DNA of 64,000 nucleotides from the NCBI GenBank assembly GCA_002633005.1, contig NMRA01000296.1:1-64000 (forward strand), read 5' to 3'. Position 1 is the stretch's first letter; the number at the start of each line of letters is the position of its first letter. The notes under the pieces were generated by a model. It made no database searches, was not told where the DNA came from, and saw only the letters and a list, made by a program, of their open reading frames with translations. The position numbers and the translations under genes are program-made. This DNA is from Phoronis australis (taxonomy: Eukaryota > Animalia > Phoronida). This document shows, one piece after another, positions 851 through 60,500 of the stretch.

Positions 851-1290
851 AAAATTTAATTCAGGTGACATCAAAACAGGTAAATACGTTGTCTTAGGGT
901 CTATTTACAATAATGAGCCTCAAAACAGTACACAGAGTACCTTCAAACTTATAAAAAAGTTATAAAACGCTTGAACACATAAAGATATGAGATATTGAAC
1001 ATGTCCAAATTCCACCAGTCGGAGCGTGATATGCATTGGAACACATAAAGGAATAAAACTTATTATTGACAGGGAGACTACAAATATGGTATTTTATAAA
1101 TACGCAGAAGGCTTGAACATAGTTTTCTCCGTTACCGTGAGATGTCACAGTCATCCATAATATGGTATCACCAAATGTTCCATCTATTGCACAGCCTTTA
1201 AAGGTTCACCATATTGCTAGAAGTACTTAACAATTAACTTTTAAAACACATGCATAACAGTACCCCCATGATAGTGATATTCAAGTTCAT

Positions 1291-2430
1291 GTGGTAATGA
1301 AAAACAATCCCACTGCAAAGATTACTCGAGCTGAACTCATGGAGCTATTCAAATTTGCTACCAGTAAAAACCATTTTGTATTTAATGGGGAGGTTTTTAA
1401 CCAAATTGATGGTATAGCAATGGGCTCACCTTTGGCTCCCATACTAGCTGACATGTTTTTAGGTCACCATGAGAAAACATGGATTGAGACATACACTGCT
1501 CCTCGCATCTATTTCTATCGACGATATGTAGATGATGTGTTTTGTATATTTGAAAATCAGCAGTCAGCCCAGGAATTTTTGGTGTATTTAAACTCGTGGC
1601 ATCCTAATTTGAAATTCAGTATAGAATTAGAGGTCGATAACATTTTGCCATTTCTGGACGTCTTAGTGCAGCGTGAGGGTATCTCAGTGATAACATCAGT
1701 ATTTCATAAGAAGACCTACACAGGACTGTACACTTGTTTTCATAGCTTCACATCCTTTGTTTGTAAAGTAGGTCTCATTAAAACTCTAATAGACAGGGTA
1801 TATCGCATTAACAACACTTGGGCTAGATTTGATTCTAATATTAAAGAACTTACAACGAATTTGCAAAAGAATGGCTATCCCCTAGAATTAGTCAATAGGG
1901 TACTGAAAGCAAGACTCCAACGTAACCCTGATGATGTTCATCCCGTAGACAAAACTAACTACAAGTACTTTAAAATACCCTATGTTGGGTTTTACGCCAA
2001 AATTGCTCAACGAAAACTAAACAAATTGGTGAATGATTACTGTGTGAACTTAAGAGTTGTATTAACATTCAAGTCTCTAAAACTGTCGAATTTATTTAAC
2101 CCTAAGGACAAAATTGCCATGGGTCTACGGTCCAATGTAGTATACAAATTTATCTGTGCTGGATGTGCCTCCAGTTATATAGGCGAAACTGTTCGCCATT
2201 TGAAAACCAGGATCAAGAAACATCTAAATTCTGACAGAAATTCACATGTTAATATTCACCTACAGAGCTCCAATCATTGTTATCAGCAGTGCTCTTTCAA
2301 TGACTCTGCAATAATAGACCAGGCAGTAACAACAAAGGAGCTTAAAATTCGTGAGGCTTTACACATCAGTTGGAGCAAGCCCAATCTCAATAGGCAACTG
2401 ACACACCACAGGTTGTCATTGTTGGTCTAG
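1291..2430 (+). CDS. 5'-truncated Penelope-like element ORF: reverse transcriptase C-terminal half plus GIY-YIG endonuclease
   Basis: RT motifs QIDGIAMGSPLAP and YRRYVDD, LPFLDV, and GIY-YIG VVYKFICAGCASSYIGETVRHLKTRI; uninterrupted 379-codon frame lacking the RT N-terminus. Confidence 0.95.
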   Translation: MVMKNNPTAKITRAELMELFKFATSKNHFVFNGEVFNQIDGIAMGSPLAPILADMFLGHHEKTWIETYTAPRIYFYRRYVDDVFCIFENQQSAQEFLVYLNSWHPNLKFSIELEVDNILPFLDVLVQREGISVITSVFHKKTYTGLYTCFHSFTSFVCKVGLIKTLIDRVYRINNTWARFDSNIKELTTNLQKNGYPLELVNRVLKARLQRNPDDVHPVDKTNYKYFKIPYVGFYAKIAQRKLNKLVNDYCVNLRVVLTFKSLKLSNLFNPKDKIAMGLRSNVVYKFICAGCASSYIGETVRHLKTRIKKHLNSDRNSHVNIHLQSSNHCYQQCSFNDSAIIDQAVTTKELKIREALHISWSKPNLNRQLTHHRLSLLV

Positions 2431-30600: not shown

Positions 30601-33600
30601 AAATCATAGCAACTTCGCAGCAGCAAAGTTTCGGTTTACTGGTAGCCTATTAAAATAAAAAATACTCAACTTGTTACAAAATGAAACCAGTTCGGATGAT
30701 TTGTTGTCCCATGTACGCAACCTCGTGGAAGAACGGTTGATTGAAGAATCGGGGAAATAAAGAAACTGGCCAATAGGTGACGCAATATTTCATGTCGCCA
30801 AAAGCCGGCACAAAAGGCCACTCCATAACTTTGAGTAGCAGAATAACGGTAGAACGCCAATTTTTTCCAACACCAGTAAATAATTTATTTTACTTAAAGA
30901 AAGAGTCCAGTTTTTAATGAAACATTTTGCGTCAGGTTTGATTTGGCCAGTTTTTTATCCATATCGGCGCAAAGCTGTACATGCCCCATTTAGTATACAG
31001 CTTTGCACCAAGCCAATGCTGCTATACTTGGCCCAAACAAAGCCCCTCTGAAACATGTATCCTCGAAATGGCTAGAACAAATAAATGGAATCTTCCTGTT
31101 AAAAAATGACTTGTTTGTCGATGCATTTGACTAGCTATGCTCCTAAAGTTTGTCCCTAAGTCAACAAACAATTCAATTATTGTCATTTGAATTGTAAAAA
31201 CATTTTGCGACACTTTGTAGAGTTGTCCGACATTCATTAACATCCTTGGGACTTATTTCAGATAAGCAAAGTTCGTTTAGTGTTCTTTGCTGTTTGGGGA
31301 TCGGATGATAGATCACATTTTCCCAGAATGTCAACCTGCATTTACAATGCATATATAAGTTCACAGAAGCATAGCCATTTCTTACAAGAATTGTCAAAAG
31401 TCTTCTGTTAATTAGTCGATTTTCGTAGATGCATAAACGTGTAAATCAGAAACCAATAAATTTTTTGTTTATCAAAACAGAATAAGCAATTCCCTAAGAC
31501 GTGCTCGGAGACTCTCGATGGACAATTGGAGAGAACATGGGAGACGTGGCATCACACAGGGTTTGGGGATCCCTAATAAGTTTCAGAACTTATTCATGCT
31601 CACGTGTATTTTTGCTCATTACGTACGGTTCACGAGTTAAACTCCAAAATAGCGCTTAAATCTTTGTTAATGATTGCCAATACTTCGAGAACCATCGTTT
31701 CACATGTACACGTTTATCAAAAATCGTACCCCCGCCAGCCTTTCCCACATGTGCGAATTCCTTACAAAGAACTCCTATGTAGTAACGATCTTCAAAACGA
31801 ATACAATTCTTGTTACACTATGCGGAAAATTTACTGTAAACACTATTTTATAAAGACATTAGAAATAGTCCTTTGAGTAATTCACAAATAGTGGTCTTCG
31901 CGTTCTTCAAACTTCCATCCCTTCGATGGCGGTCGATTCTATTGTCTTTCAAATTTTTTAGTTATTTGGACCGAATGCTTGAAATTTGATACTGCTGTGG
32001 TGTTGACGATTGTTTTGTATTTTTTGATGAATTTGGAATTCCAGCTCATTCTTTCGTGAATACGATTTTTGGCAGTGTCGGATTTACATGTATAGACGAA
32101 CAAAGAGAAAATTCCCCCAAACAGCCCCACCAAGAGAGGGCCCCTTCTGAAAGGGGGGCCCTTAAGATAAAAGGCTAAATATCAATAAGCATGGAAAGAG
32201 TGACAGTTAATTCCATCGTCGTGCGACCCTGCAAGAAGTGACCTTCCTCTACATGACTGAAAGATTGTACGATTTCCAATATTGGTACCTTTATAGCCTA
32301 AGTGACCCACCCCTTAAAGATTTATCAATAAAAGCACACGGAAAGGGTGAACACTTGAACGCCATCAACGGTCCCTCTCCGAGGGCTGGGCCCCTAAATG
32401 TGAATAGATCTTTTTGTATACTTTCAGAAAACAAAAAATGCTCAGCAACTGATGCTATCTGTCAGGCCATTTATTTTACTCAAGTGATATACAATTTCGA
32501 GAAAAGAGCGGAAAAATAGAGCTACAGTTGTCTCCGGAATCCCTTGCCAGAGTGGGGCCTCTGGAAAAATATAGTTTGGGATTTGGCAAAATTGTCTTTA
32601 TTACTTATGGGTAATGAAAATAAAGTTTTAAATTGGATACTTTTGCAATTAAAACATTTTATTTACCTATCCAGGTGAAAAAAATAATCCCCAGTTTCTG
32701 TCAGTTCCTTAAGATATTAGAAAGAGAATTTTATATTCAAAGAAGGATTTTATTAAATAATGGTAATTTAGATGAATACCATGCAACCTGGAGAAACTGG
32801 TTAACCATAACTTTTACCTGACAACATCCTACTAAAAGTAAGTTGGGGGGCGGGTGCGTGTGGCGTGTATGTTAAGGGTGAGAATGGCTTGATTTTTTTC
32901 TTACATATCTGTATTTCTGTTCTGTATACCAATAAAAAAAGAAAAAAAAATGTCTTTATTGAATTCAAAGCGAACCTTGTGAATTCAATACGCTCCACAA
33001 AAGTTGCACTTCACGAATGTTCTCGATGCTTTTCGAAATACATGCCTGTATAAATTACTAAGCGCACGTTTTCAAGTGCGTTTAGGTGACCTATTCCTCA
33101 AAAGGTGCCCCAGCCTAACAACAATGTCCTGGCCGGGGCCCTCAAAGGTTACTTGTTAAATGTTCTCTTGAATTTTCTCTCTTCTATCTCCTTGCTTTGA
33201 TGTTTTTCTTTTCTCGACTGCCCCTGACCTCACGCCTATGTCGGTTGCCACGGCTGTTTAACCCTGGCGCCTGCAAATTTTAGTAGGGGGAGGGCACACT
33301 TTTCCTACGGCCCTGCATAGTAAATTACATATATTCACACCTCAGGGATGCTAGCTATATGATATTGCCTGGTGCATGTAAGTAACTACGCAGGGCACTC
33401 AACTAAGTTACCGAATAGAAATGAAATCTCAGTGGAGAATGGTACGTCGTTGTTTCGAGTGATGCTCAGAAAATTAAATATTGGGCTAGATGATACACAT
33501 TAATCAAATCCGACGTTACGCCAATCAATAGTTTCGAAATGCCCAGTTGTGTTACATGGCATGTTTTTATTTCGACCATTGGACGGGGTCAAGGTCAGGG

Positions 33601-33943
33601 TCACAAGAATTATTCTTGCACGCAATGAGACTCAGTGTCGAAAGGGTCACGTTTTGTTATTATTTGATCGAATCTAGGTCAATCTTCAGCACGTAGTTAT
33701 TGAATAAAACTCAATCAAATTTGCCGTGTCATTCACTCGCGCAGTTGTTCAACGCTTTTAAATTCAGTTGTGGGTGTCATTGGACAGCTCAGTAGGGAAG
33801 CGTTGACGCGAGATAGTTACCACTCTGAACCAGACATCTTGAACGGTGAAGCCACGGTTACTCAAGCGGTTTATTGAACCCCGGCTGCTACTCTGTGCAT
33901 CTGAGACGCCTTTATAGACGAACCGTCGATCATTGAAACGAAA

Positions 33944-34423
33944 ATGTGTTTCAAGGCAACCTGCGACAAATGTAAGAAGACTACATGGAAAGGTGCAGTA
34001 ATTTATTTTGAATCTGGGTAGATAAACAAGTAACTGCTTGAGAGGTCCCCTGTCTCACTGCTACCTCTCAGTGCGTGCTAGCCGTCACAGTCAAGGGCTG
34101 TCTGTACGTACCGTTAGTTTGTTTCGTCAGATACTAAGCCAAAAACTTCAGTTGACACCTGACAATTTCCCTTTTCTCGTGAGAAACTGAAAAAATTGCA
34201 GTGATAAAGATTTGATTATGGCTATGAAATGTGGCCCTTCAGGGGCCAGTCATTAGGGGGAATGCAACTGCGAAAATTTCCGTTTTTTTACTAGATGAGA
34301 CTACTGTTACAGTGTTAACTGATTATTGGTTCCCCGTATATTCTAGGCTGTGGCCAACACGTAGACCAAGTGATGAAAGATATCCCAGTCGATCAGAGGT
34401 GCAAGTGTTCAAAAGAAAAATAG
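33944..34423 (+). CDS. 41-aa Cys/His-rich microprotein, 2 coding exons (33944-33992, 34347-34423)
   Basis: aaaATG start; phase-1 GT-AG intron joins in frame: MCFKATCDKCKKTTWKGCGQHVDQVMKDIPVDQRCKCSKEK*; matches from memory an uncharacterised CxxCxKxTWxGCGxH...CxC family. Confidence 0.88.
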
Positions 34424-37400
34424 GTAATTAAATCTAGGTCGTTATAAGACCAACGAGACCGAAGTCGACGGAACGCGACACTTTTTACTCTGGGAATTTC
34501 AGCTGTTGTTACCATGCATGGTAAAGACGATATCCTGATCTGTCATGGGGGGTTTCATTGGCTCGTCGTGTTCTCACGTCCTAGTCTTTCTTTTTACTAT
34601 TCACACGTTTTTTCAGATACTCGTCCGTTATCAAGTTTATAGCAAAAATATGTAAAGCATGCCAATATCATAAAATCATCTGTGTTGTAAGGTAACACTG
34701 ACAATAGGGGTTCGGATCTTTCCAAACATGGCTCATAAGTTAGAATACACGTGGGCAGAACGCTGTCGCAACTGCCGTTCGGCTACCCTTGAAATTTTAT
34801 GATCGAAGTCATCAACTTCGGATAAAAATCCAGGCCATCGAACGGTCTCCCGTTTTTATATTCTGGATCCTACAGTGTAGTGTTCCAAGTACGGTAAAGC
34901 TTCTTCAAATTAGAACACAGTGTGGCGGAACAGTAAAATTTTATGCTATCAAAATTTTCAACAAGAGTAAATAAGAAAAATTTACTTGCTTATTCGCAAA
35001 TTTTATTAGTAGGGCCTACTACTGTCATCAATAAAATTATTTGAACATATTTGGCAATACAGTGAGCGTTTGCAAAACGAAAAATTTATCGGAGTTTAAC
35101 TGACCAACAATTAAACAGCGCAATTAGTTCCTGTCGAAGATCCGTGAAATAGTAGCACACTCGAAAATGACTCCGTTGTACTGATTCTGAAAAGTCGCTT
35201 ATCGCTTTTGGACGACATACATTGACTTAAATGTAAAATAGTAATTTTGAATGATTTTTTTCATTTCAGAGATGGTTTGCCTGTTCTCCTCCCTGAAATT
35301 TTCTTCTTTCTCGGAACCAAGTTGCTCAATTTTCTTGCCACATGGGGTCTCCAACAACCGGCGTAAACTGACGTTGAAGGTCGGACGTCGTATTTTTTGG
35401 TTAGCTTAAAACAAAATTACCGTATGTTTGGATCATACCGTATTCTTTAATTACGCACGTAACGTTGCTGTAAGCAGAAAAAAATAGTAAACGGGAATGT
35501 TTGTTAACGAGCAGTGTTTTTTGTATCAAATGATCGTGAATTTTAAGATAGAGTTTGAGAATTCTTGCCACTTTTTGTTTTTCAGTGGCATGATATGCGT
35601 GTAACACATTTATTGATGAAGTGTTTGAATCCTTTATGTTTTTTTCTGTGCGGTAATATTTCAGTCGCTAAAGATCGTCGGCGGAACTAGCACATTTTAA
35701 AGAACAAACCATAGTAATACGAGGGAACGACAACCTTGTCTGAATTTTAACATTATTTATAGATGGACGGAAGTTTGTTGTTAAAAGTTGTTCTGATGTA
35801 GAGATACTCTTTGCATGCGTGCACCTGGGGGGTGGACAAAAAGGTCCGCCTCAGAGAAACGGAAAGTCCGACAAAACGAGACAAAAAGTCCACTAAAAAG
35901 GCGAAAACGCCAATTCACAGCTCTGGACGTGGTACCCCGTTTTTTTTAGCCCTTCGGCTTTTGTGTCGGTAAAAGGGTAAAATGTCCACATCGACGGAAA
36001 TTCGAGCTCCCCCCATATTAAAGGCTGGGTACGCGCGCATGGTTTGTGTGCGCGTCATCTTGTACTTCTCACGAAGCAAAACTTAAATTTAACCAACATT
36101 GTTTAATGTTTCTGTACCAGCATCGCATTCACTTTAGAACGATTTCCACGTTCTGTATCCTGCATGCCCGCATTTGCTTTAGCCAAAGTAAGAACGGAGA
36201 GCCAGTTGTGGACTGTCCGAAATGTGGTGCACGTAGGCTTTGGCGCACAGTGTTTCTATGCACACTCGTGTGATTATTGTATTTATTTCGTTGTTTGTCA
36301 TCTTTATATTTACACTTTTTGTATAAATGCGTCATATCTTTAGCCACACGTTGTTTTACTTTTTCAAACTGGTCAAAGCAGTCAGGGGCTGAATTCCGTA
36401 GACGCAGAACACACTCCGAACGAAAAAGCGAGATCACGCGAGTCTGCAAGATATCACCAAGCATTATAAGCAAAGCACGTGACCACACCAGCTTTACTCG
36501 CGAGTTTCTTGCGTTTAGGGAACACAATCCTGTACTGTAACGACGAAAACTGCCAACATTTTACTCGAAATCAAAAATCTGTCATTTTCGTTCTGCTTAC
36601 ATACGAACTCAAAATAATTGTCTATAAATCTGGTTTACATCCTAATTTGCGTGGATGATTGTGTTATCCCATTTTGTACATTGTGACCACAGCATTAAAG
36701 TCTGGGCCACAAATTTTGTAACAACGACTTGCGCTTCGAGCCACAACGCGGGTGCACCTCAACACGCTCTGTACGCAGGTCTGATGGTTGCTTGGCCCTA
36801 TATACACACCAGCCTCTTGATCTGAAGACCGGTAAACATATTGACACCTGTCAATCGTGCAGATAGCACTCGATAGCTTTTTCTGGTTGGGCTTGAAAAA
36901 CCTGGTGCACATAGTTCCACCTTTCGGTTCAGTCTACAAGGTGTATGAAACCTGGAAACACGAAGGTTTCAACATCTTTGCATAAGCTCAATAAAACTTA
37001 TTTCAATGTGAAATTTTCGATCTTTTATGACTGTGGCTTCCGCCAAAACAGTGCAAAATAACAACAGTAGGTTTATTTAGAGCGTTCTCTTTTGAAGTCA
37101 GCCTCTATACCGGGTCTATAGCTTCGATAAATGATGAAAGACACAAATTGCAATAAACACATACACATGAATGCAACTTACTTATAAGGTGAATACCTAC
37201 ACAGTTTATCCCAAAGGTTATTTGACCTCCGAATCACGCGTCAAATTGCTTTTCCCGCCTACCAGCGAACGCGGTGTACCCCAGCAAAGCACCGGAGCTA
37301 GATCGATCAACATGCAATTTGTTTGACCACCAGTCAAAATTATTTCACTCAAGATTACTGTTGGAGAACACCTCATTGCAGCGACAAAAAATGCACAGAA

Positions 37401-41500: not shown

Positions 41501-44500
41501 CGCTCAGGTAGTCATATTAATCACTGCCGTTAGCTGGGAAGTGAACAAGACTAACCTTAATCGTGTCGTGTACTGTGGCAACACCTAGCGGGTGTATGTT
41601 AGCAGACGAAGTACGAGTAGCGTCGACTACAATATCCGATTTTAGTTTTCAAATTCCAAATTGTAAAGTGTCTTTGTTTCAAATATTAAGAACGAAAGCA
41701 AAATATAGAGTAAATCAAAAAAATGGGCAGCAAAAATAATATACAATAACGAGAAATACACCATAAGCAAGAGGGTGACTCAGTGATCAGATGTGACCCA
41801 CTCAACCCAGGAGATACTTAGTCTTCACAGCGGGTGGTATAAGGTAATAGTTTGCAAGTGTGATCAGGCGTGATGCGTTTTAAACAAATTTATTAAGTCA
41901 CATCCTCATCCTCTCTGATCAGGCCACTGGCACGTGAGCCCACGTGACCAGTTGCCACATTGTCTCTGAACTGAAAGTCTCCCACTGCATTCACAACCGC
42001 CGACAGCAGACGTAACTGTCAGACTATATCAGATGCTGGTCTCTGCGTCACTTCCCAGAGGTCAGGGTATTCCTATTCCGCGGTGGTGTTACCCGGTTCT
42101 AAAGAAGGCATATTTCACGAATATTCGATTATTGCAATAATTTTTCTCTAAATAATGCATTCTGTAGAGGTCAGCCACCAAAACCATATCATCATTAACG
42201 TAAACTGTCAGGGTTGTCGTTTCCAACGTCGTTATTTATTTATTTATTTATTATTGTGATATTTAAAATGAGGTTGGCCTCTTCAGTGATAGCACTGCTT
42301 TCCAAGTTTTAACATTGACATCAAAAACATCATCGCTGTCGAAGACTTCGCCGTTGTTGCCACAAATACCCCTTACAAGTCAATACGTATGATCATACAA
42401 GAGCGGATGAGAGGGTACATACTCCCCGCATTCTCTGGTCGTAATCCAGTATCTATGCCTTCGTTTTATCCTCGTGACTTAAAGTAAGACTTCAGTCAGA
42501 AAGTTGGTCTTCCGCTGGCACTTCACGATTACCAAATAAAGGTTTTAACCTTTAACTTAAAAGTCATGTAATTATTGTCATCACTGCATGAAAATATCTG
42601 CTCAAAATGTTCTCAGAAAATAGCAGTTATGGGTATATTGCGGGATGTACTAGTACCTTTTCTAAAGTGCGCTTTATTTTTCAAAATTAGTTATGTGAAG
42701 TGTTAGATCAAATTTCTGTCTCACTCATGAATACGAACCCTGGACTCATACGCAACGAGTGTTAATTATTGTTACAAACAAAATCATAGATAGCCACACT
42801 TGCCTCGACAACTGTCATCAGCATTGCTGCCGTCACTAGAACATACATACTTGTTGCAGGATACCAGTTTGGGGAGCCATTCTAATCACATTTGTCGACA
42901 CAGTCACACTGTTGCTTACAGAGTTGCCTTGTTTGAAGAGATTCAACGTATTCTTTGCAGTCTTGTTCACCACCACAGCAGCATGTCTCCTCTCAGTGGT
43001 GAGTACATGCTCGAGAAAATGTTTAGAGGATAAGGACGCAGTCACTTGGTATAAAATTTGTGAATTTGAAAGAAACTACAAAATTTGACAATCGTCCTTA
43101 TAGGAGTTCAGGAGCTGCAGCCATGAACGCTCATAGACAGATGATGACAACCCACATACATATGTGGGTGTGGAGGGCATAAAAGTTAACCATGCAAAAG
43201 ACCTGATCAGGTGAAAAAGACAAATAAGAACAACATATTATACAACTATTATTTAATGATGACTAAGAAAACTATAACAGAAATATAACTGTTCTCAAAA
43301 TATAAGGTGTCTTAAAAATGTAAACAAAAATGTAAATACCAAAAAGAAGTTTACTGGGAACTGACCCTGTTTGATATTCCAGGAACCCCATTTTCTTTCT
43401 CACTGCATGGTCTTACAGTCTTCTTACGCTCCATATAGAATGAGGAGTTCTTTAAGTACTGAATCGAGGATACATAGACATGGGGTGTAATTTGGCAAGT
43501 CACTTACAGGGGTCCTGGATTTGAAGAACCAGTTTGACGCCTGTTATCCAAAGGAGAATACTGGTTCTCACAATGTGGAACCCCTGTAAGTGACTAATGC
43601 CTGTCTTTCAAAATCAGACCTAAAGGAAAACTTGGCCATATTTTACATACACACATTGAAACGAGTCATGGGTTTCGATCTGGATAGAAAAAACAGAGCC
43701 GTTGACCGTTACATTTTCTTATAGCTGGAAGTTTCAACTGATGTCCTCATAAAAGTGTATAATATTGCTAACCAAATGCTAATGACCTCAGCGTGCTTGT
43801 GGAAAAAATAATTTTCCGCACAGGCGCATACTAATCTGACTCTGATCCAGTTTCACCAGACTTCTTGCAACTTTTCACGTCACAGTGAAACGAATGACCA
43901 GAGATGTTGACTAGGGACATAACACCACCCAAAAAACCGGGTGCGAGTCGCGTCAGGAGAAATGTATAATTATAGCCACCACTATGGATCTCCTCGCCAC
44001 CACCAACATTAATAGATGGACGGAAAATACGGGAAACCCACAGATGAAATGAGTCATCACATTTCTCGCACTTATTTGAGGATCCGTGATCCACGCATGG
44101 CTCTACGTGAAGTGGGTCAAGGTCACCATCAGGTCGCTGACCCAAATGTATCATCCTCTGTCTTTCAGAACTAAACTCTCTTGTTTTTGGTTCTGTAGTT
44201 GGCGATATCTTTTGAGCCGATTTCTTGCTTTGTTTAGTGGTGCCAGACACCTCATCTGAACTGCTATCCCTTTCTTCAGCAGAACTATCGCTGTACATTG
44301 TGACACCTTCGTCGTCTTCTGGATCACTCCACTCAGGGTCGTCATGGAAACCAAAATAATAGGCGCAGACAGAGTCACTCATTTGCCAATCAACAGATAA
44401 TCCACCGACGTCTGTAATGTATTCAACATCAGCCACATTGAATATTTTGAATACCTGAAATACAAATATACAAACTTCAGTCTCCCCAAATGCAGATTAC

Positions 44501-47500
44501 AGATTATTAGATTAATTGCAAAATTAAACTCTTAGCGATAGAATCACAAAGATAATCTTGAAGTAAGTTTTACACTTCCAGTCTTGTGTTGAGAAACAGT
44601 TGAACAGTAAGGCTCAAATTTGACTACTAGGGTCCATTACTTTCAAAACACCTGTGAGGTGCTAGAGTGGTTCAAATGTTAGTCATGTACCTTAAGACAG
44701 TCAGACTAAAGTACAATAAAAAGTAATCGAGCATAAAAACTAAGGTTGGCTGGCAACTCTGGACGGTCCACCATGACAATATAATGTTATGACCCTTCAG
44801 ATTCAAGTTTGATCTCCCTACTCTAAGAATAAAATGTCGCTGTCCTGATGTATCTAACTTATAAAAGTTTCAAGAAACATTATATTTTGAAAGTCGCGGA
44901 AGAAAATATGCAATTTCATAGCTATGTCACCCATAAGGCAGCCATCTGTCCATTTCGTGGGGCCTTGTCTTGGTCAACACAGGAATTTCAATTTTGATTT
45001 GCCCCCCCCCCCTCCCCTCCCTGACCATTACAAAATGTTCCCCTGGTTGCCACTCATTTCGCCCCCCATGTTCACCAACAACATGGAGTCTGGCTTTTGT
45101 TTATTTTTCTGACTATGCCTGAGTGTAAATATACTTTACCCTGTGAGCAGACGGTAGAACATCTTGACTCCATGGGAAAAGGCACATGGTTGGATGGCCA
45201 GAGTACGAGCTATCCTCAACAACTATTTCTCTCTGATCCATTTCTTTCCTCATTTTGGTCAATACATGAAGAGCAAAGGCAAGCGATCGTGGATTATGTT
45301 GCAAAACAAGCTTGACATCGAAACTTGCAGGAACTGCTACCCTACACTTTAACATCGCTGGCGATGGGTCAAAATACGACTTGTAGGTCTCAAGATAAGG
45401 CTCGTCCTTCACTGCACAGTCATTCAATGAAGTATCAAAATACTGTCGAATATATCTCTGCCAAAACACGACACTGTCGGATAGAATTCGATTCCACCGC
45501 TTGCTGACTCGAATGCAGTGCGTGTTCAAATCAGTGGCACTAAGTCTTGAGAAAATACTCTCTAAGAGCTCGTCGCTGAGTGCGTTTATGTCACTTCTCG
45601 CTTGTGCCATCTTCAGAGCAGAGATTCTGAAACAGTTATCAGGCTTGGATGCGGCGGGAATGGTTTAAAAAGGTTTTACCGAAACAAAACAATGTCTAGG
45701 CATGTCTAGTACTTCGCTGGCTGCCAACCCGGAAATGTCATTTGCAGAGACACCTAGTGATCATTTTTAGCCGACAGTAGTGACATCTTTTAGCAGGTGA
45801 CCTCATCGTGTAGCACTAAAAATGTTCGCGCGCTAAATAACTCCAAAAGTTACGCACGGAGCTTACTTTGCCACAGCCTCCAACTCGTCACATAATGAAG
45901 ATAGAGTGATAAAAAACGATATACTGGAATATTTGGTCGAATTGGGCATGACCAAAATTAATTGGAACAAATAGATGTTTACTTAGTAAAAAACTAAATT
46001 TCCAACATATTGCATGCCCCCTAACGTCGCGACATAAACACCTAAATCCTCCAGTGAACATTAAAAAATTTTCGGGCTCCCTGACTTTTCTCACAAGACG
46101 CAGCAACCAGTTCACTAAACTATAACAGAGAGCATCTATGACTAGTTTTGCTATTTTGCTCATAAAATATATAGTTTTAATTTTTTCATCTTCATTTTTT
46201 ACGAACGTGTAACAAAGTTTCACCTTCTAGCCGGTCTTTGACGTGGGTAATAGGCGTCACAGAAGTTAAGCTACAAAAGAAACAACGCTAACAGATTAAT
46301 TTATCTTTTTCGAAACGTTTGAAATATTACCCGAATCTTTTTAGTTACGAACCGTACTTTGTGTTTATTACCCAAGATATAATTTTCAATAAAACAAAGC
46401 TAGCATAGAGGGCATCACAACTGCTGAAAAAAGTTTAACCAACTCTAGAAATAATTTAAGGAAATTGCCTCGCCAGTAAGTCATGTGCGTATTCTCAGAG
46501 ACTTTCCACTTTTTTCGGGTGAGATTTAATTACTTTTCTGTGACCTAAGTTACGATTCACTGAAAACCATTATATCTGGGCGTGATGACTTATTGAAACT
46601 GCTTTTCACCTTCTCTGTTATTTGTTTCAGTATGTTGTAGGACAGCCTGATCAAGTCGGCGTGTTGACCGGTCTGAGCGTTCCTTGGTGTAACGGGTGTA
46701 GTGCAAACGCCACAAGTGTTCTAGTAGTAATGATTGGGGCAATCGTGCAGCCGCACAATGTCTATCTTCTCACTGGATTGGTTGCGGTGGGTATCATATA
46801 GTAACTGCTTCCACTTATTCTATGAGAAATCAAGATCATACGGCCACAGTAGGGCTTCGTTTCGTAGACCCAAGAAACTTGCGAAAAACGAGATCACGCA
46901 AGACCAGTGATCGCAGAATCAAGCACATAGTTTCGTCTGACGGTTGTTCACGTGCTTTTTAGTTAGTGTGTGAATTTGCCTGATTAAAAATGGTGCTTTT
47001 CATTGCTTCGTCCTAACGGCTTCCAGCGAGAATCATATTACTTATTGGCGTTTTTATTTCTTTGTTAAAAGAGCAATAAGCTGAGTCGAATCTGATAAGA
47101 ATCATCTGCACTAGTACGTATACCTCTGTCCTGCATTGTCTTTTCATCCGTGTGTTGCGACGACTGTCTGAAAACGGCAGGGAATCTGTAAAAGCTTTTG
47201 GATATCACTTCTAGATTTAAAATCGGATGAATCACAAATACCTGATTGTATAGTATTGGTGTAATTTAAATACATTTAAATGGCATTTAACAGAGACAAA
47301 TAAATCCATAACTTTGAACGATTAGCCTATCACCGTATCAATTGATCCCTTTCGTTTAATAGAGTAATTCCGAATTTTACTCTCCATGTAGCTCCTACGA
47401 TCCCCCCACGAAAAACGTCGCTCACCTAATGAGGATCAGGAAAATCGGCCACCGAAATGCGCAATACCTAATATAGAGGTTGATGCAAAAAGACCAAATA

Positions 47501-54589: not shown

Positions 54590-57500
54590 TCAAGTCAGCC
54601 TTTCCAGGGAATTGGTGAACTTGAGTAGGTCGACCAATCCCAGGTGTAGTTCTTCTTTCATCACTTTGTAGTAGAACTCAGGAGACGTGTGGCGCATTCG
54701 CACAAGCCCATGTACAAGTTTTCCATCAAAGTCGGCAAACCTACAGGTGTGACATTAAAAAACTCATGCACATGTACCAGTTTCTCAGAAAAGACCTCAC
54801 TACCTTTAAGGGACATTCTTGGTGAGAAAAGTTGTTTTAGACATCAGCAGTAGCGCCGAACCGAACACATTAGTTCTACAGTAGCTCTGCCCCTGAGCAG
54901 GGCTCGACATAACGAGCTGCAGGTCGCATTTGCGACCTGAAATTTGAAAATGCAAGCTGAGATTTCTGTCAGCTCATATCAAGTCACAAAATGCGACCTG
55001 GAATTTCCAACGAATGAAAGCTGAGGTTTTACACTTCTCGGCAGATACCTGGCAATGATATGAAAGCAAGTCTTGTTAATCCGACCGTCATTTGGTTGTT
55101 GCCAAATCCAAGTTCAAACGAACACTAAGGTCGATGTTCCCTAAGCCCTATATTCTATGCCCGTAGCCAGCTATTGCAAAATTGTGGTTAGCGAACTTTT
55201 TTCTTCTCTTCATACACCACNTAAAAAGGGCACAGTGTAGGTGGTATCGGTATCTAGGAAGTCACCCCTACTAGATGGGTTTTGTCTCGAAAAAATCGTA
55301 TTATTTTGTACCATTGCAGTCTTTTAATACCCCATTACCGCAAACACTCAGTTTACCGACTATCCTCTAAGCGTTCCTCCTCAACTTTTGAGAAATTCCA
55401 ACTGAGCGCCCACAGTTCAGGCTAGCGCACTACAAATGACCGCGCGTGGTTTAAAATTTACACGCAGCCTAAATGGTGTGTGACTCTCATTCTACGCAAC
55501 AAACTCAGTTTTCAAAAAATGTCTTTTCTCAATACGTAAAAACCAAATCCCGGCTTTGTTTTATGCCACCGAAAGAAAGTTAACACTAGTAACGTGCGTG
55601 TTGTTTTGTGACTGACCTATTTTTCCCGTGCTTGGAAGGTATATTGAGGAGCAAACTCGTCATTACCCGATGGAAACCTGCACGGAGGGAATCGAGAATT
55701 ATTTTGAGGTTATTCATTTCATGGAAAACTAATTGTTGAGTACGTAAACGGCATAAGTATCACATTTTGTTGTGAAATTTGCACTGAATTGTTCCCATGC
55801 ATCCAAATAGGTCATTCGGTTAGGGCATCGTTTCACGGATACTTTGACAGATGTTTTTCAAACATCGAGTTAAGTTGCAAAATTTGGGCTGCGAACAAAA
55901 AGTGGAGGGAATTTGCACTCCGAGTTAGTTTGAATCTTTAACGACTTTTATGACAGACACTAGCAGGTCAGACCTAGCAAAATCCAGGATACTTTTTCAC
56001 TTTTTCATCGGGCATTTTCTCCCTCTTCACATCGCAAACTTAGCTACTCGAATGCACGTGTCAGTTAGAGAGCGCTGATTCAACTTGCACGTCGGCAACT
56101 TGCCTTGCGCTCGGGAGCCTTTCAATGGTGGTCGTGAAGAACAGTAACGTCGTATCTGCATGAACGAAGTCACTTTTGCGATCTGAAATTTGTGGGTATT
56201 TAACGCTGCAGGTAAAAGCATAATCTAAACATTTTCTCCATAATCTAAAAAATCAATTTTGGCGCGTAAAAATGGAGGGAAAATTTGCGACCTGGCATTT
56301 ATGAATGCAAGTTGGATTTTGAAAATGCGACCTGGGATTTTGGCTAGGTCGCAAAATGCGACCTGGCAATTTTAATAATGTCGAGATCTGCTGAGCCAAA
56401 GCTTCTGAATAGATAGCAAAGTATTTTAAGCGGATTCAAATTGTGAAGACATCAACCTTGATTTCAATGAATGTCTGGCAGACAACACCAAGATTTGGTG
56501 ATTTGTAATAAAATCACAAAAACAACAGGTTTTCTTGTTTTAAAACTCTGGTCAAATTTTAATTAATAACTTCAAGAAATCTATCCCATCCAACAATAAT
56601 CATCAATATACTGCTTTTCGGCCGCAAAAACGAACATGTACCTTCAAAACAAATTCAGAACAAACAGAGTCCCCTGAATATAGTTCATGTTGACGTACAA
56701 GTATTCCTCTGGGAATGACACATACTCTTCAATATACGTGTGCACAATGCATGACTTGATAGTAAACGATTGGCAGTCATCAAAATGACGACAAAATTTC
56801 ATGAAGATAATGATGCGGGTGCAAAAAATAAAACCCCATGACGATCTTTCGAACCATTTGGCAAATAGGGAGGCGAACGCATCAAAACACTTAAATTGTC
56901 ACCAGGGGGCACACAACACAACAGAGCCATTAAAAAATTGTCTGGTGACATACCCTCAAACACATCTGCCAGGTTTTGAAAAGATCCATCGCGGTAGGGC
57001 GAATTGGTGACAATGACATTTGAAAAGTTAAGTCATACTACACCAACAATTTGACTTTTTTATCCGATACCAAAACCTTAACCTTACAAATACCCCAAAA
57101 TTGGTTAAAAAAATTCTTAACGATGATAGGATTTCGTTTTTGTTGCCATTAAAAAATCCAAAGTGCTTGGGAATAAAAAATACTTCACCCCACCCTGAAC
57201 AATATTGCTTCAATTTAATGGCAGGCAAAAATTTCAATTTCAAATAATAGTATGAGTTCCTCTTCCAAATCCTGTTCGATAGGCAAAGCTCACTTTGAAA
57301 GAATATTTCTTTACTTCATGGTTATGAAGTAAGTGAAACTGAAGCCCTACAAAGAAATACATAAAAAAGCAGAGTTCCATGAGTGAAGTAAGACACATGT
57401 ACTGGTGTGCCACAACCGTGAACAATTCATTTATACTTAGCGCCACATGAAAGTCTGCTATTACGTACTTGTGGGAGTGGTGCTGCAGGTCAAGTTTGGC

Positions 57501-60500
57501 AAGCCATTCCATGACGTCTTCATGCGTCCAGGAATCTAGGACACTAATCACAGGCATACTAGGTGGCGGTACTGAGACGGTGGTGGAAGAGACAAACTCA
57601 CCTGATTGGATAAAAGAAATGTATCTGATAATTTTGCCTTCTTTATGATTTGTACCTGAAACAACTCTACTGTTTCGAAAATTCTCCTGCCCATCAGTAC
57701 CTGAAACAACTGTATTGTCTCTAAAAATTCCCTTTCCCTCGAGTGAGCGAAGGTCCTGCTGTTGTCTAAGCTCTACTGATAAATGGTATTTCTATTACAT
57801 TGTGTGCATCCCATAGCACAAGCATCATCCCTCATGAACATGACATATTAAACGGTGGAGTCAAAAAATATTTGCAGACAAAATTTTATCATTTTCTCGT
57901 TTTATAAGTGTCACGGCACAATCCAGGGCTTGGAATGTCCCATGACAAAAAAAGCGGAAATTTTTACGGCCCGAAAGATGCGCGCACCCAGCCTTGAAAA
58001 TGGGGGGGCTCGTATTTTTGTCGATGCGGACCTTTTGCCGAAAAAACATCGGGAAGACTAAAAAAGGTACCGTCTGCGTCATTTCAGCTCGTCCGTCCAC
58101 TCCCACCTCCACACGTTTTTGGCTGCAGAGTCGTAGTATTTCTTACCGCGATTCACAATCTCACGAGACGCCATTGAGGAAAACCACGCTATCCCAGGTG
58201 TCCCGGCAATGATAACAATTTACGTTCCTCCGAAACATAAAGAGCAACTTACGCTTTTCGAAGTGAAAGTCGTCGGTAACGCCGCGGCAAGAAAGAAATT
58301 TGCTGCGGAAATTTTATATCAAATCTGATTTTTTTTTACCTGGAAATATAATAAAATGCGCGGACAGAACATTTGAAAAAAGCGGAAATCCGCGTTTCCG
58401 CGGAAATTCCAAGCCCTGACAAACTCACTGTCTGTGGTGTCCTCTTCTATCACCCCTAGCTTCCCACGATTCCTGAGCTCACGAATCACATCCTGCAGTT
58501 TCGTTGTCCAATCACATTGCTGGCTGAAGTCGAAGTACAGCTTATTACCTATCATGGCCCCCAGCCATCCGCTAGGTCTGAAGTCCTTTTGCAGCAACAA
58601 CGGCACTACATCTTTGCGTAAGCGGAATGTGTACTCACCCTCTGCAAATGAAGGCCAAAGTTTAAAAGGACACAAAACCCTGTTTTGATGATTTCAAGCG
58701 TTCATTGTTCTGTCACCTGCTAAAGCATCCTTGATGTCAATCTTCCAAGTTAAAAGCAAGAATCAACTAAAAACTCATACTCCCTGGGACACAGATTGGG
58801 ATTTTACGGTCCTTGGTGGATGGTCTTTACCACAGTTGCCACGTTATTCGCTAAAAGCAGAGGTCACTCTATCCCATCTGGCAGACTTTGAAAGGAGTTT
58901 CAAATTTTTCCTCCAAACTTTTGAGGGTTGTCAAGGGTCACAGAGCATTATTTTGTTTCAGAGAACTGGATGGGAAAGTTGTTTTAGTATATGTTAATGG
59001 GCCAAAACCGGGTTTGGTATCCCTTTAAGTACAAGTACCAAATCAAGATTCACAAGAATTTTCAACAATTGAAAAGTTTGAAAAATCATGGAACTTAAAC
59101 CAAAATGCAAGGCAAATCTGCACCAATATCTAGCAATGATTTAGCAATTACCGGTACTACTATGAAAGCCACTACTGTCATGGATTATCTTGTTGATACA
59201 GAGCGTTTTCGAGCAGAGATTTTCACCCATGTCCAGCACTGGAAACTCTCCCATTACATTAAGTAAGTGTTGCAACTGTGAACTCTCATACATACCAGTC
59301 CTACAGTTGGGACTGTCCATGTACTTCTGTGACATGCATACAATCACTACAGCGGCGTTCTCTACAGCATTAGCCATGGCCTCGAGTATGCTGCCCTCTG
59401 TAACAGGAACAATGCAAAGTGCTGATGTGTGCTCACAAGTGTGCCGTGCATGGTATTTTATCATGGGTCGTGTGGGATGTATATTAATTCCATGAAATAT
59501 GATTACTGAAGTCAGGTGGCAACCGTATCCAAGCTGAAAATCAAATAGACACACACCTACACACAAACAACCACACAAAAACACCCACACACAAACACTC
59601 ACACACAAACATAAAACCACACTTGAAAATAGGGTCCATGCATTGTACTGGGAAGACATCAACAGGAATGGTCAAGTGGCTAAACAATTTTTTGATGTTT
59701 TCCCAAAAGTATTAGCAGATGAAGTATTGTTTAACTGAGACAAAAATAATTAATGTAAGAAAGAGCAGACCTGGGTCCACAAAACATTATCAAGTTTCTT
59801 TATTTTAAGACTTGAGAAACAATGGCGTAATTATGCTTTGAAAACGATAAGTTCAACACACTATTATAATTGTAAAATCTCTTATGCATCTTATTCATGT
59901 CCATGATACCACAGACGTATAGCTGGTGTTTAATCAAATATACTTTCACTTGCCCAGATTTTCAGAAATCCACACCAGCTTGTTTGGCAAAAATATAACA
60001 AGTCAACACTGACAGAGGGTACATCATTATCTGCAGTATGCCTGAAACCTGTTCAATGATAAAACATCACTTTTCTGTCACAATTTTGCAATGTCCATAA
60101 TGGGCATGGTGAAGAAATGACCAATCAGGGATCCATAATTTATGAGGTCACAGTTCACAGAGATTTTCCTGGTTTTAAGGGTAAAACATGTCATATTCAA
60201 AGCACCTCATTGCCATTAGTTTCTGATCTTCAGGAACAGAACCAGTGTAATTTAGTAGGCGAATGCTTTCCAATTTCATAATGCAGTAATTAAATTGCTG
60301 GTAACTATGACAGTTCATTTTCACGTCATAATTTTGGAAAACATTTTTAACAAAACAAATGGAAATAGTTGTCCCTGGCAATGTCTTTGAGATCCCATAA
60401 AGAACTAACTGAACTTCAGACTACAAGCTCTTACAACTACTCTTTTGGAGAAATATTAGGTCACATCCTTTATCTGGAAAGAAGAACACAGTGAATTGAA

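Follow-up and report, generated by a model that had tools for sequence, protein, structure and literature searches.

An expressed, intron-split microprotein gene of Phoronis australis and its widespread, unnamed Cys6-His family

Introduction

In Streptomyces coelicolor, a CsoR-like repressor, a persulfide dioxygenase (PDO)-rhodanese, a TauE protein and a rhodanese form a proven circuit that senses and removes sulfane sulfur, as laid out in the excerpted text of PMC7533328. Here, we describe a gene from a 64,000-nucleotide stretch of the genome of the phoronid Phoronis australis (GenBank assembly GCA_002633005.1, contig NMRA01000296.1, positions 1 to 64,000 of the forward strand), hereafter the window. 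The gene, whose coding part runs from 33944 to 34423 on the + strand, encodes a 41-residue protein with six cysteines and one histidine, and bacterial members of its family sit beside or inside the same gene set. The ScCsoR-ScPDO-TauE-Rhod circuit differs in that it comprises four genes, with no small Cys-rich protein mentioned in that excerpt (PMC7533328). The link between the family and such CsoR/CstR sulfane-sulfur sets is one of gene neighbourhood only, and it concerns about a third of the bacterial loci. The gene set around the bacterial members is made up of a CsoR-like repressor, a metallo-beta-lactamase (MBL)-rhodanese fusion, rhodanese, TauE, a CoA-disulfide-reductase-rhodanese and thioredoxin. 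In Staphylococcus aureus, the cst operon is a CsoR/CstR-controlled set for sulfane-sulfur detoxification.

Several kinds of small cysteine-containing protein invite comparison as well. With zinc-ribbon and treble-clef modules, the family shares, in its predicted fold, C-x2-C in the turn of a beta-hairpin and, after it, C-x2-H where a helix begins, and one JGI family record is labelled “predicted nucleic-acid-binding Zn-ribbon protein”. However, no Pfam zinc-ribbon domain and no PDB fold was matched, and the family has three cysteines, C2, C35 and C37, outside a single four-ligand site. Metallothioneins are likewise small, Cys-rich and devoid of enzymatic domains; yet cysteine makes up 15% of the window protein (6/41) versus about 25–30% in metallothioneins, Trp and Phe are present, the spacing is fixed with invariant Trp, Gly and His, a hairpin-helix fold is predicted, and no Pfam metallothionein model was matched. 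A metallothionein identity was rejected on the Cys count, the aromatic residues and the Pfam result. Finally, HypC/HupF and CooT use an N-terminal Cys as a metal ligand after removal of Met, and substrates of the Cys/Arg N-degron pathway with an N-terminal Cys include RGS4/5, IL-32 and plant ERF-VII proteins. The Met-Cys start of the family resembles these proteins, to which the family has no sequence relationship.

A 41-residue gene split by an intron escapes gene finders and the length cut-offs of open reading frame (ORF) lists. The family to which it belongs comprises more than 1000 clusters at 50% identity and extends from Actinomycetota to fungi, plants, annelids, molluscs, rotifers and amphioxus, yet it has no Pfam or NCBIfam model and no solved structure.

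Structure and expression of the gene

The gene is real, spliced and transcribed from the + strand; it has three exons, and its first AUG opens a frame that spans two of them. RNA sequencing data of the same species, namely the raw reads of three runs (X6, X7 and X8) and the contigs of a fourth run (X5), were mapped to positions 33400–35700. Coverage set in at about 33700–33790 (onset bins 33631–33784), and one X5 contig ended at 33709. Exon 1, placed at 33709–33992 with an approximate start, consists of a leader of about 235 nt and of the coding sequence (CDS) from the ATG at 33944 to 33992, i.e. 16 codons and the first base of Gly17. The donor, G|GTGCAG, lies at 33992/33993. Intron 1 (33993–34346; 354 nt, GT..AG) interrupts the codon of the invariant Gly17 in phase 1 and ends at the acceptor TTCTAG|GC (34346/34347). 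Exon 2 (34347–34423), identified by translation, by the family profile and by coverage, completes Gly17 with its remaining two bases and adds 24 codons and a TAG (34421–34423). Joined in frame, the two exons form a CDS of 126 nt for the 41-residue peptide.

The first-pass annotation, made from the letters alone, had proposed this two-exon ORF with its six Cys, one His and clean splice sites, and had named spliced reads across 33992/34347 as a check on it. The proposal was confirmed by 46 reads that skip the 354 nt between 33992 and 34347 (15, 9 and 22 in X6, X7 and X8, respectively) and by one X5 contig. The same annotation had noted that the TAG directly abuts GTAATT, and had suggested an intron in the 3' untranslated region (UTR) with an acceptor near either 34617 or 35269. 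A junction joining 34423 to 35270 (GT..AG, 846 nt skipped) was seen in 25 reads (5, 11 and 9 in the three runs) and in one X5 contig. Thus the donor and the acceptor near 35269 were both correct, and none of the junctions listed lies at about 34617. Intron 2 (34424–35269) therefore begins right after the stop codon. GT likewise comes straight after the stop codon at two loci from metagenomes, L194 and L219 (TAAGTCATT and TGAGTCATT), and an intron in this place may be shared by some relatives.

The coverage agreed with these junctions. Exon 1 was covered, no reads fell on 34016–34323, exon 2 was covered, none fell on 34478–35247, and coverage resumed at about 35270 and continued up to 35700. 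Exon 3, which is 3' UTR, thus spans 35270–35700 and beyond, since one X5 contig extended 408 nt past 35700. The first mate mapped to the minus strand in all reads, which together with the GT..AG junctions places the RNA on the + strand.

The 254 nt from 33690 to 33943 hold no ATG, and the ATG at 33944, in the context AAAATGT, is the first AUG of the mRNA. The modelled mRNA is longer than 1 kb and has a long 3' UTR. An ORF check and a six-frame scan of the window with the family hidden Markov model (HMM) found no other conserved or family-like ORF in it. A minor donor, T|GTAAGA at 33971/33972, is joined to the same acceptor (alternative intron 33972–34346) in 2, 6 and 2 reads of X6, X7 and X8, versus 46 at the main junction. 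The resulting frame stays open and encodes 34 residues; its product is probably a non-functional by-product, as it lacks residues 11–17, including the invariant T14, W15 and G17. Between assembly and RNA there were 12 variant sites (at 33787–33832 and 35473–35633), every one of them within a UTR; the 126-nt CDS had none. With about two CDS variants expected by length, this lends weak support to constraint on the CDS.

Membership in an unnamed protein family

The first-pass annotation had linked the peptide to a little-studied family with the pattern MC-x4-C-x2-C-x-K-x-TW-x-GCG-x-H...C-x-C. Such a family does exist. A degenerate DNA pattern for C-x2-C-x3-TW-x-GCG-x-H was scanned on bacterial contigs, one genome per species, and matched at least 122 bacterial loci, versus about four matches estimated by chance. 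Among the 122 loci listed, 113 were of Actinomycetota, four of Chloroflexota, two of Myxococcota and two of Acidobacteriota, and one was unplaced, according to the record titles. Three of the 127 pattern matches listed ran off their locus, and the other 124 were ORFs of 37–71 codons. In all of these 124 complete ORFs, an ATG, GTG or TTG stands six codons before the first Cys of the pattern, so that the protein starts with Met-Cys; the same start was found in 30/30 members of a further set. The window ORF, which opens with ATG-TGT at 33944, starts as the family does. It also has the form of the family, that of a stand-alone small protein with an N-terminal domain, bacterial members being 37–71 residues long.

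An HMM of the 124 bacterial members matched the spliced peptide with 70.8 bits (E 3.4e-24), positions 1–40 of the HMM corresponding to residues 1–40. This HMM was built from sequences selected by the motif, and conservation was re-checked in 150 representatives found by profile alone. C7, C10, G17, C18, G19 and H21 were present in 150/150 and C2 in 149/150, while C35 was present in 144 and C37 in 126 (17 others had Gly in its place, and 19 had His at position 38). Next came T14 (135), P30 (134), K12 (133), W15 (131, the rest having Tyr or Phe) and R34 (127). Homologues thus keep the TW-x-GCG-x-H core of the pattern given in the first-pass annotation, and the window peptide agrees with the consensus at all of these positions from C2 to C37.

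The scan of the window covered 3435 stop-to-stop pieces in six frames, and only the two exon pieces matched the HMM of bacterial members. Exon 2 reached an E value of 3.8e-11 (HMM positions 17–40) and exon 1 one of 6.4e-6 (positions 1–17), while the next piece had 0.18. Since the two exons alone match, and do so as complementary halves, the ORF is not a product of chance. Judged by its sequence, the gene is an unannotated member of a recorded, unnamed and unstudied Cys6-His family, MC-x4-C-x2-C...TW-x-GCG-x-H...RC-x-C.

Range and annotation of the family

Clustered at 90% identity, the family has 2777 clusters; at 50% identity it has 1055, of which 127 reach E <1e-10. Its named bacterial members are mostly Actinomycetota. 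In an even draw of 301 genomes from the phylum to which one member genome belongs (Actinomycetota, going by its locus title), 29 carried it, a count from a first-look filter that may miss carriers. The range given in the first-pass annotation, bacteria, fungi and plants, was borne out by named members: the fungi Cladochytrium replicatum, Mucidula mucida, Lyophyllum atratum and Botryobasidium botryosum, the plant Morus notabilis and the green alga Tetrabaena socialis. A choanoflagellate, Salpingoeca rosetta, also has a member.

The family had been thought seldom annotated in animals, which held in part. “Hypothetical protein” records exist for six animal species, namely Helobdella robusta, Ridgeia piscesae, Magallana gigas, Adineta ricciae, Brachionus plicatilis and Branchiostoma belcheri; the annotation is nonetheless poor, and several gene models are wrong. 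The oyster model (P0214, Magallana gigas K1QLD1) is chimeric, its tail being a fragment of a DDE_Tnp_4 transposase, and the models of amphioxus, Brachionus and Lyophyllum seem to continue past the domain into intron-like sequence. In animals, therefore, the family has been overlooked and badly annotated, although records of it do exist. In the leech model (P0187, Helobdella robusta XP_009031894.1), a Cys/His/Gly-rich tail follows the domain.

That the family is uncharacterised, as the first-pass annotation had it, agrees with the databases. No Pfam model matched the domain above cut-off in exon 2 alone, in eight bacterial members or in eight longer members, and no NCBIfam model did so in eight members. 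A Protein Atlas search returned unnamed bacterial clusters only, and the 41-residue window protein was absent from a collection of 5.8 billion proteins. The named members listed are all “hypothetical” or “uncharacterized” except for two labels from JGI: the Zn-ribbon label mentioned above, on one member, and a phage terminase name on another, which NCBI calls “hypothetical protein”. Neither the motif strings nor six locus tags were found in the main texts of the papers searched.

In many bacteria the gene is present twice or three times, often as adjacent copies (loci L009/L010, L039, L055, L076, L096, L098 and L036/L037; genomes G042 and G074). One type of copy is short, with “H-I-E-x-A-L” and a C-x-C end; the other is longer, with “H-V-D-x-V-M” and often C-x-G-H and a tail of the form GFFxRLFGR. 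The eukaryotic members, too, include both types.

At least 15 eukaryote-like metagenome homologues end in a CaaX-like box (CVIL, CAIQ, CVAQ, CAIL, CAIV, CTVL, CILL and others; loci L207, L209, L212, L223, L228, L234, L248, L256, L259, L270, L273, L281, L282, L283 and L292). The window protein ends in ...SKEK, without such a box. The boxes suggest that prenylated versions of the microprotein exist, and they point to a cytosolic, possibly membrane-tethered protein whose thiols would be free or metal-bound.

Gene neighbourhoods of bacterial members

We next examined the genes around bacterial members. Among the loci selected by the motif, the 600-bp flanks of L001–L074 contained 144 ORFs, which were scanned with Pfam. 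Rhodanese was found at five loci, Trns_repr_metal (the CsoR/CstR family) at five, Thioredoxin in four regions, and TauE and Lactamase_B at two loci each; one member is adjoined by a FUR-family gene. In the evenly drawn sample, 29 loci of 28 genomes of one phylum were examined with 1.5-kb flanks (123 ORFs), the hand-picked centre genome being left out. Nine of the 29 loci had Rhodanese, Lactamase_B(+Rhodanese), Trns_repr_metal or Thioredoxin within 1.5 kb, and none had TauE. Five fusions of Lactamase_B+Rhodanese and one of Pyr_redox_2+Rhodanese are found at these nine loci. Among 20 control regions of equal size in the same genomes, one had a member of the five families, a TauE, and none had a rhodanese. 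For the five families including TauE, 9/29 thus compares with 1/20 (Fisher’s exact test, p 0.034), and for rhodanese alone 7/29 with 0/20 (p 0.032). In one operon, the microprotein gene stands between a CoA-disulfide-reductase-rhodanese and a thioredoxin, from which 25 and 3 nt, respectively, separate it.

In addition, two proteins of one ENA metagenome cluster (P0237 and P0326) have the family domain fused to a thioredoxin (Pfam Thioredoxin, E 2e-11) whose active site reads WCAPC. In the window itself, no rhodanese, persulfide dioxygenase, TauE, CsoR-like or thioredoxin Pfam domain was found among the 21 longest ORFs; eukaryotic genes are not arranged in operons.

Predicted fold and proposed function

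An AlphaFold2 model of the Myxococcota protein P0002, made with 134 aligned members, was read as scores and secondary structure, not as coordinates. Its predicted local distance difference test score (pLDDT) was 87 over residues 1–30 and 79 over residues 31–40, with strands at 3–6 and 13–16 and a helix at 22–26. From this model and the pattern of residues we infer that the beta-hairpin would carry the C7-x2-C10 knuckle, with C18-x2-H21 at the start of the short helix, and that C7, C10, C18 and H21 would form a treble-clef-like CCCH zinc site with four ligands. C2, C35 and C37 (or H38 in a bacterial subtype) would be left over and could either bind a second metal or act as reactive thiols. A PDB sequence search with the family profile gave best E values of 0.046 (cerato-platanin) and 3.4 (dendrotoxin); both were discarded as relatives, being chance matches on strings like “TW-x-GCG”.

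Our favoured reading, which we put forward tentatively, is that the expressed gene encodes a zinc-folded small protein that takes part in thiol and sulfane-sulfur redox handling together with thioredoxin and rhodanese-type enzymes. The proposed role derives from the bacterial neighbourhoods and the thioredoxin fusion. The 41-residue Cys6-His protein would fold round zinc, as predicted, into a small stabilised module and would act beside thioredoxin and rhodanese-type enzymes. It could serve as an acceptor or carrier of persulfide, or as a thiol switch reduced by thioredoxin; once Met is removed, C2 would become the exposed N-terminal residue.

Several points weigh against this reading. The thioredoxin fusion consists of one cluster of two truncated metagenome gene models. 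The neighbourhood signal is bacterial, concerns only about a third of the loci and was compared with a small control of 20 regions. CsoR-family repressors also sense copper or nickel, and the set of neighbours is hence not fully specific. As for the treble clef, a Foldseek search against PDB gave a best E value of 4.3 and VIA-align returned nothing at Z>=2, in searches in which small models rarely score.

The alternative that fares best is a metal-buffering or metal-chaperone microprotein for Zn, Cu or Cd, in which metal binding would be the function rather than a matter of structure only. Six cysteines and one histidine in 41 residues, all of them invariant or nearly so in the family, are what such a protein might show. 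The genes of the CsoR family and the FUR family beside bacterial members fit it too, as do the Cys/His/Gly-rich tail of the leech member and the conserved Met-Cys start, which recalls the N-terminal Cys ligands of HypC and CooT. However, the 144 and 123 flanking ORFs (267 together) contain no copper ATPase, HMA, CopZ or multicopper oxidase domain, and the recurrent neighbours are rather rhodanese, persulfide-dioxygenase-like MBL-rhodanese fusions, TauE and thioredoxin. A scan for metal- and antioxidant-response elements upstream of the gene found one site like each, which is chance level, and the protein departs from metallothioneins in its Cys content and its Trp and Phe. We consider a metal-handling function rather unlikely.

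The sulfane-sulfur reading may be extended to the whole family, as a near-universal carrier or sensor of persulfide or sulfane sulfur that would act through its N-terminal Cys from Actinomycetota to animals. In eukaryotes this Cys would also form an oxygen- or nitric oxide (NO)-labile Cys/Arg N-degron, and the CaaX versions would work at membranes. This extension is speculative, and we hold it to be doubtful at best.

The bacterial neighbourhoods and the thioredoxin fusion do provide a concrete and testable functional hypothesis. If the protein is a small partner in sulfide or persulfide detoxification, it would be a new component of a pathway that has been investigated both in bacteria and in the mitochondria of animals, and its role would account for the retention of the gene in animals that live in sulfidic habitats. 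The N-degron reading, if true, would tie sulfide handling to oxygen sensing. Even if the protein is only a zinc-stabilised module with some other function, the gene is still a clean, expressed and conserved microprotein gene for annotation pipelines.

Origin and coding status

The first-pass annotation had left a choice between an overlooked ancient gene and a transferred gene that acquired introns. To look for introns in other members, the pattern “AG + exon-2 motif”, which itself favours such cases, was scanned over metagenome contigs and gave at least 119 loci. Among the 119 loci listed, 26 had a family-type exon 2 that starts at AG, with no in-frame “TW” upstream, and 24 of these 26 matches lay on low-GC contigs (0.24–0.43) with pyrimidine-rich acceptors. 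At four loci (L243, L259, L282 and L283), exon 1 was found upstream and ended in ...W-x-G|GT, giving a phase-1 intron in the Gly17 codon as in the window, with lengths of about 656, 628, 168 and 56 nt, respectively. A gene model, P0215, has an in-frame insert of 60 nt, a retained one, at the same spot. In other low-GC members, whose sequences are rotifer-like, no intron interrupts Gly17. These loci show that the position of the intron is shared with other eukaryote-like contigs, a scan biased by the pattern implying nothing about its frequency.

A tree of 61 rows and 41 columns was poorly resolved, with 7 starred branches out of 57, none of which held the window sequence. Monophyly of the 15 eukaryotic rows was not rejected by an approximately unbiased (AU) test (p 0.246). 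Because of the wide eukaryotic range, the shared Gly17 intron and this test, the gene is probably an old eukaryotic one with patchy retention.

A recent horizontal transfer from a bacterium, with introns gained afterwards, would account for the best pairwise match of the peptide, which is bacterial: 72.5% identity to P0002, from a metagenome-assembled genome of Myxococcota (locus L027). The unnamed sequences P0091, P0124, P0100 and P0123 are 70–74% identical, the named eukaryotic members are 57–62% identical to the window peptide, and the row nearest to the window by path in the tree is the same Myxococcota sequence. Percent identity carries little weight, however, when 41 columns hold a highly conserved core, and no starred branch unites the window with bacteria. 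The named members, which come from six animal species, one choanoflagellate, four fungi, one land plant and one green alga, the Gly17 intron indicated in 24 other low-GC contigs (four with exon 1 in view), the P0215 insert and the unrejected eukaryotic clade all speak against a recent transfer, which we regard as improbable.

Finally, a non-coding or regulatory RNA, whose short ORF gives no stable protein or has a regulatory role only, would suit an ORF of 126 nt in an mRNA above 1 kb with a long 3' UTR, but it is most improbable in view of a frame that opens at the first AUG in good context, an end-to-end family match with all invariant residues, the lack of any other family-like or long conserved ORF in the modelled mRNA and, weakly, the variant-free CDS.

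Upstream region and other features of the window

Upstream of the gene, GGGGTCAaGGTCAgGGTCA at 33586–33603 (+ strand) contains three GGTCA half-sites with 1-nt spacing, an arrangement of direct repeats of the DR1 type that resembles nuclear-receptor elements. It lies about 110–140 bp upstream of the onset of RNA coverage, and two more GGTCA (33645 and 33677) lie within 90 bp of it. The string GGTCANGGTCA occurs three times in the window, versus 0.15 expected; two occurrences overlap at 33586–33603 and the further site is at 44115–44125. The GGTCA cluster is a candidate promoter element of the gene.

Elsewhere in the window, the weak SAM and TIR matches described below do not support a SARM1-like gene, and they have no PDB relative by sequence. 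They lie further on from an F-box-like exon (36 bits, above cut-off) in the minus-strand regions 45116–45664, 57243–57791 and 59144–59671, and are themselves below threshold. The F-box exon, the GT-AG introns and the reverse-transcriptase frame described next mark the DNA as eukaryotic; an Rfam search gave no match. At 1258–2427 (+ strand), an open frame of 390 codons has a reverse-transcriptase match followed by a GIY-YIG match, each just under the Pfam cut-off, in an order that we take to be that of Penelope-like retroelements.

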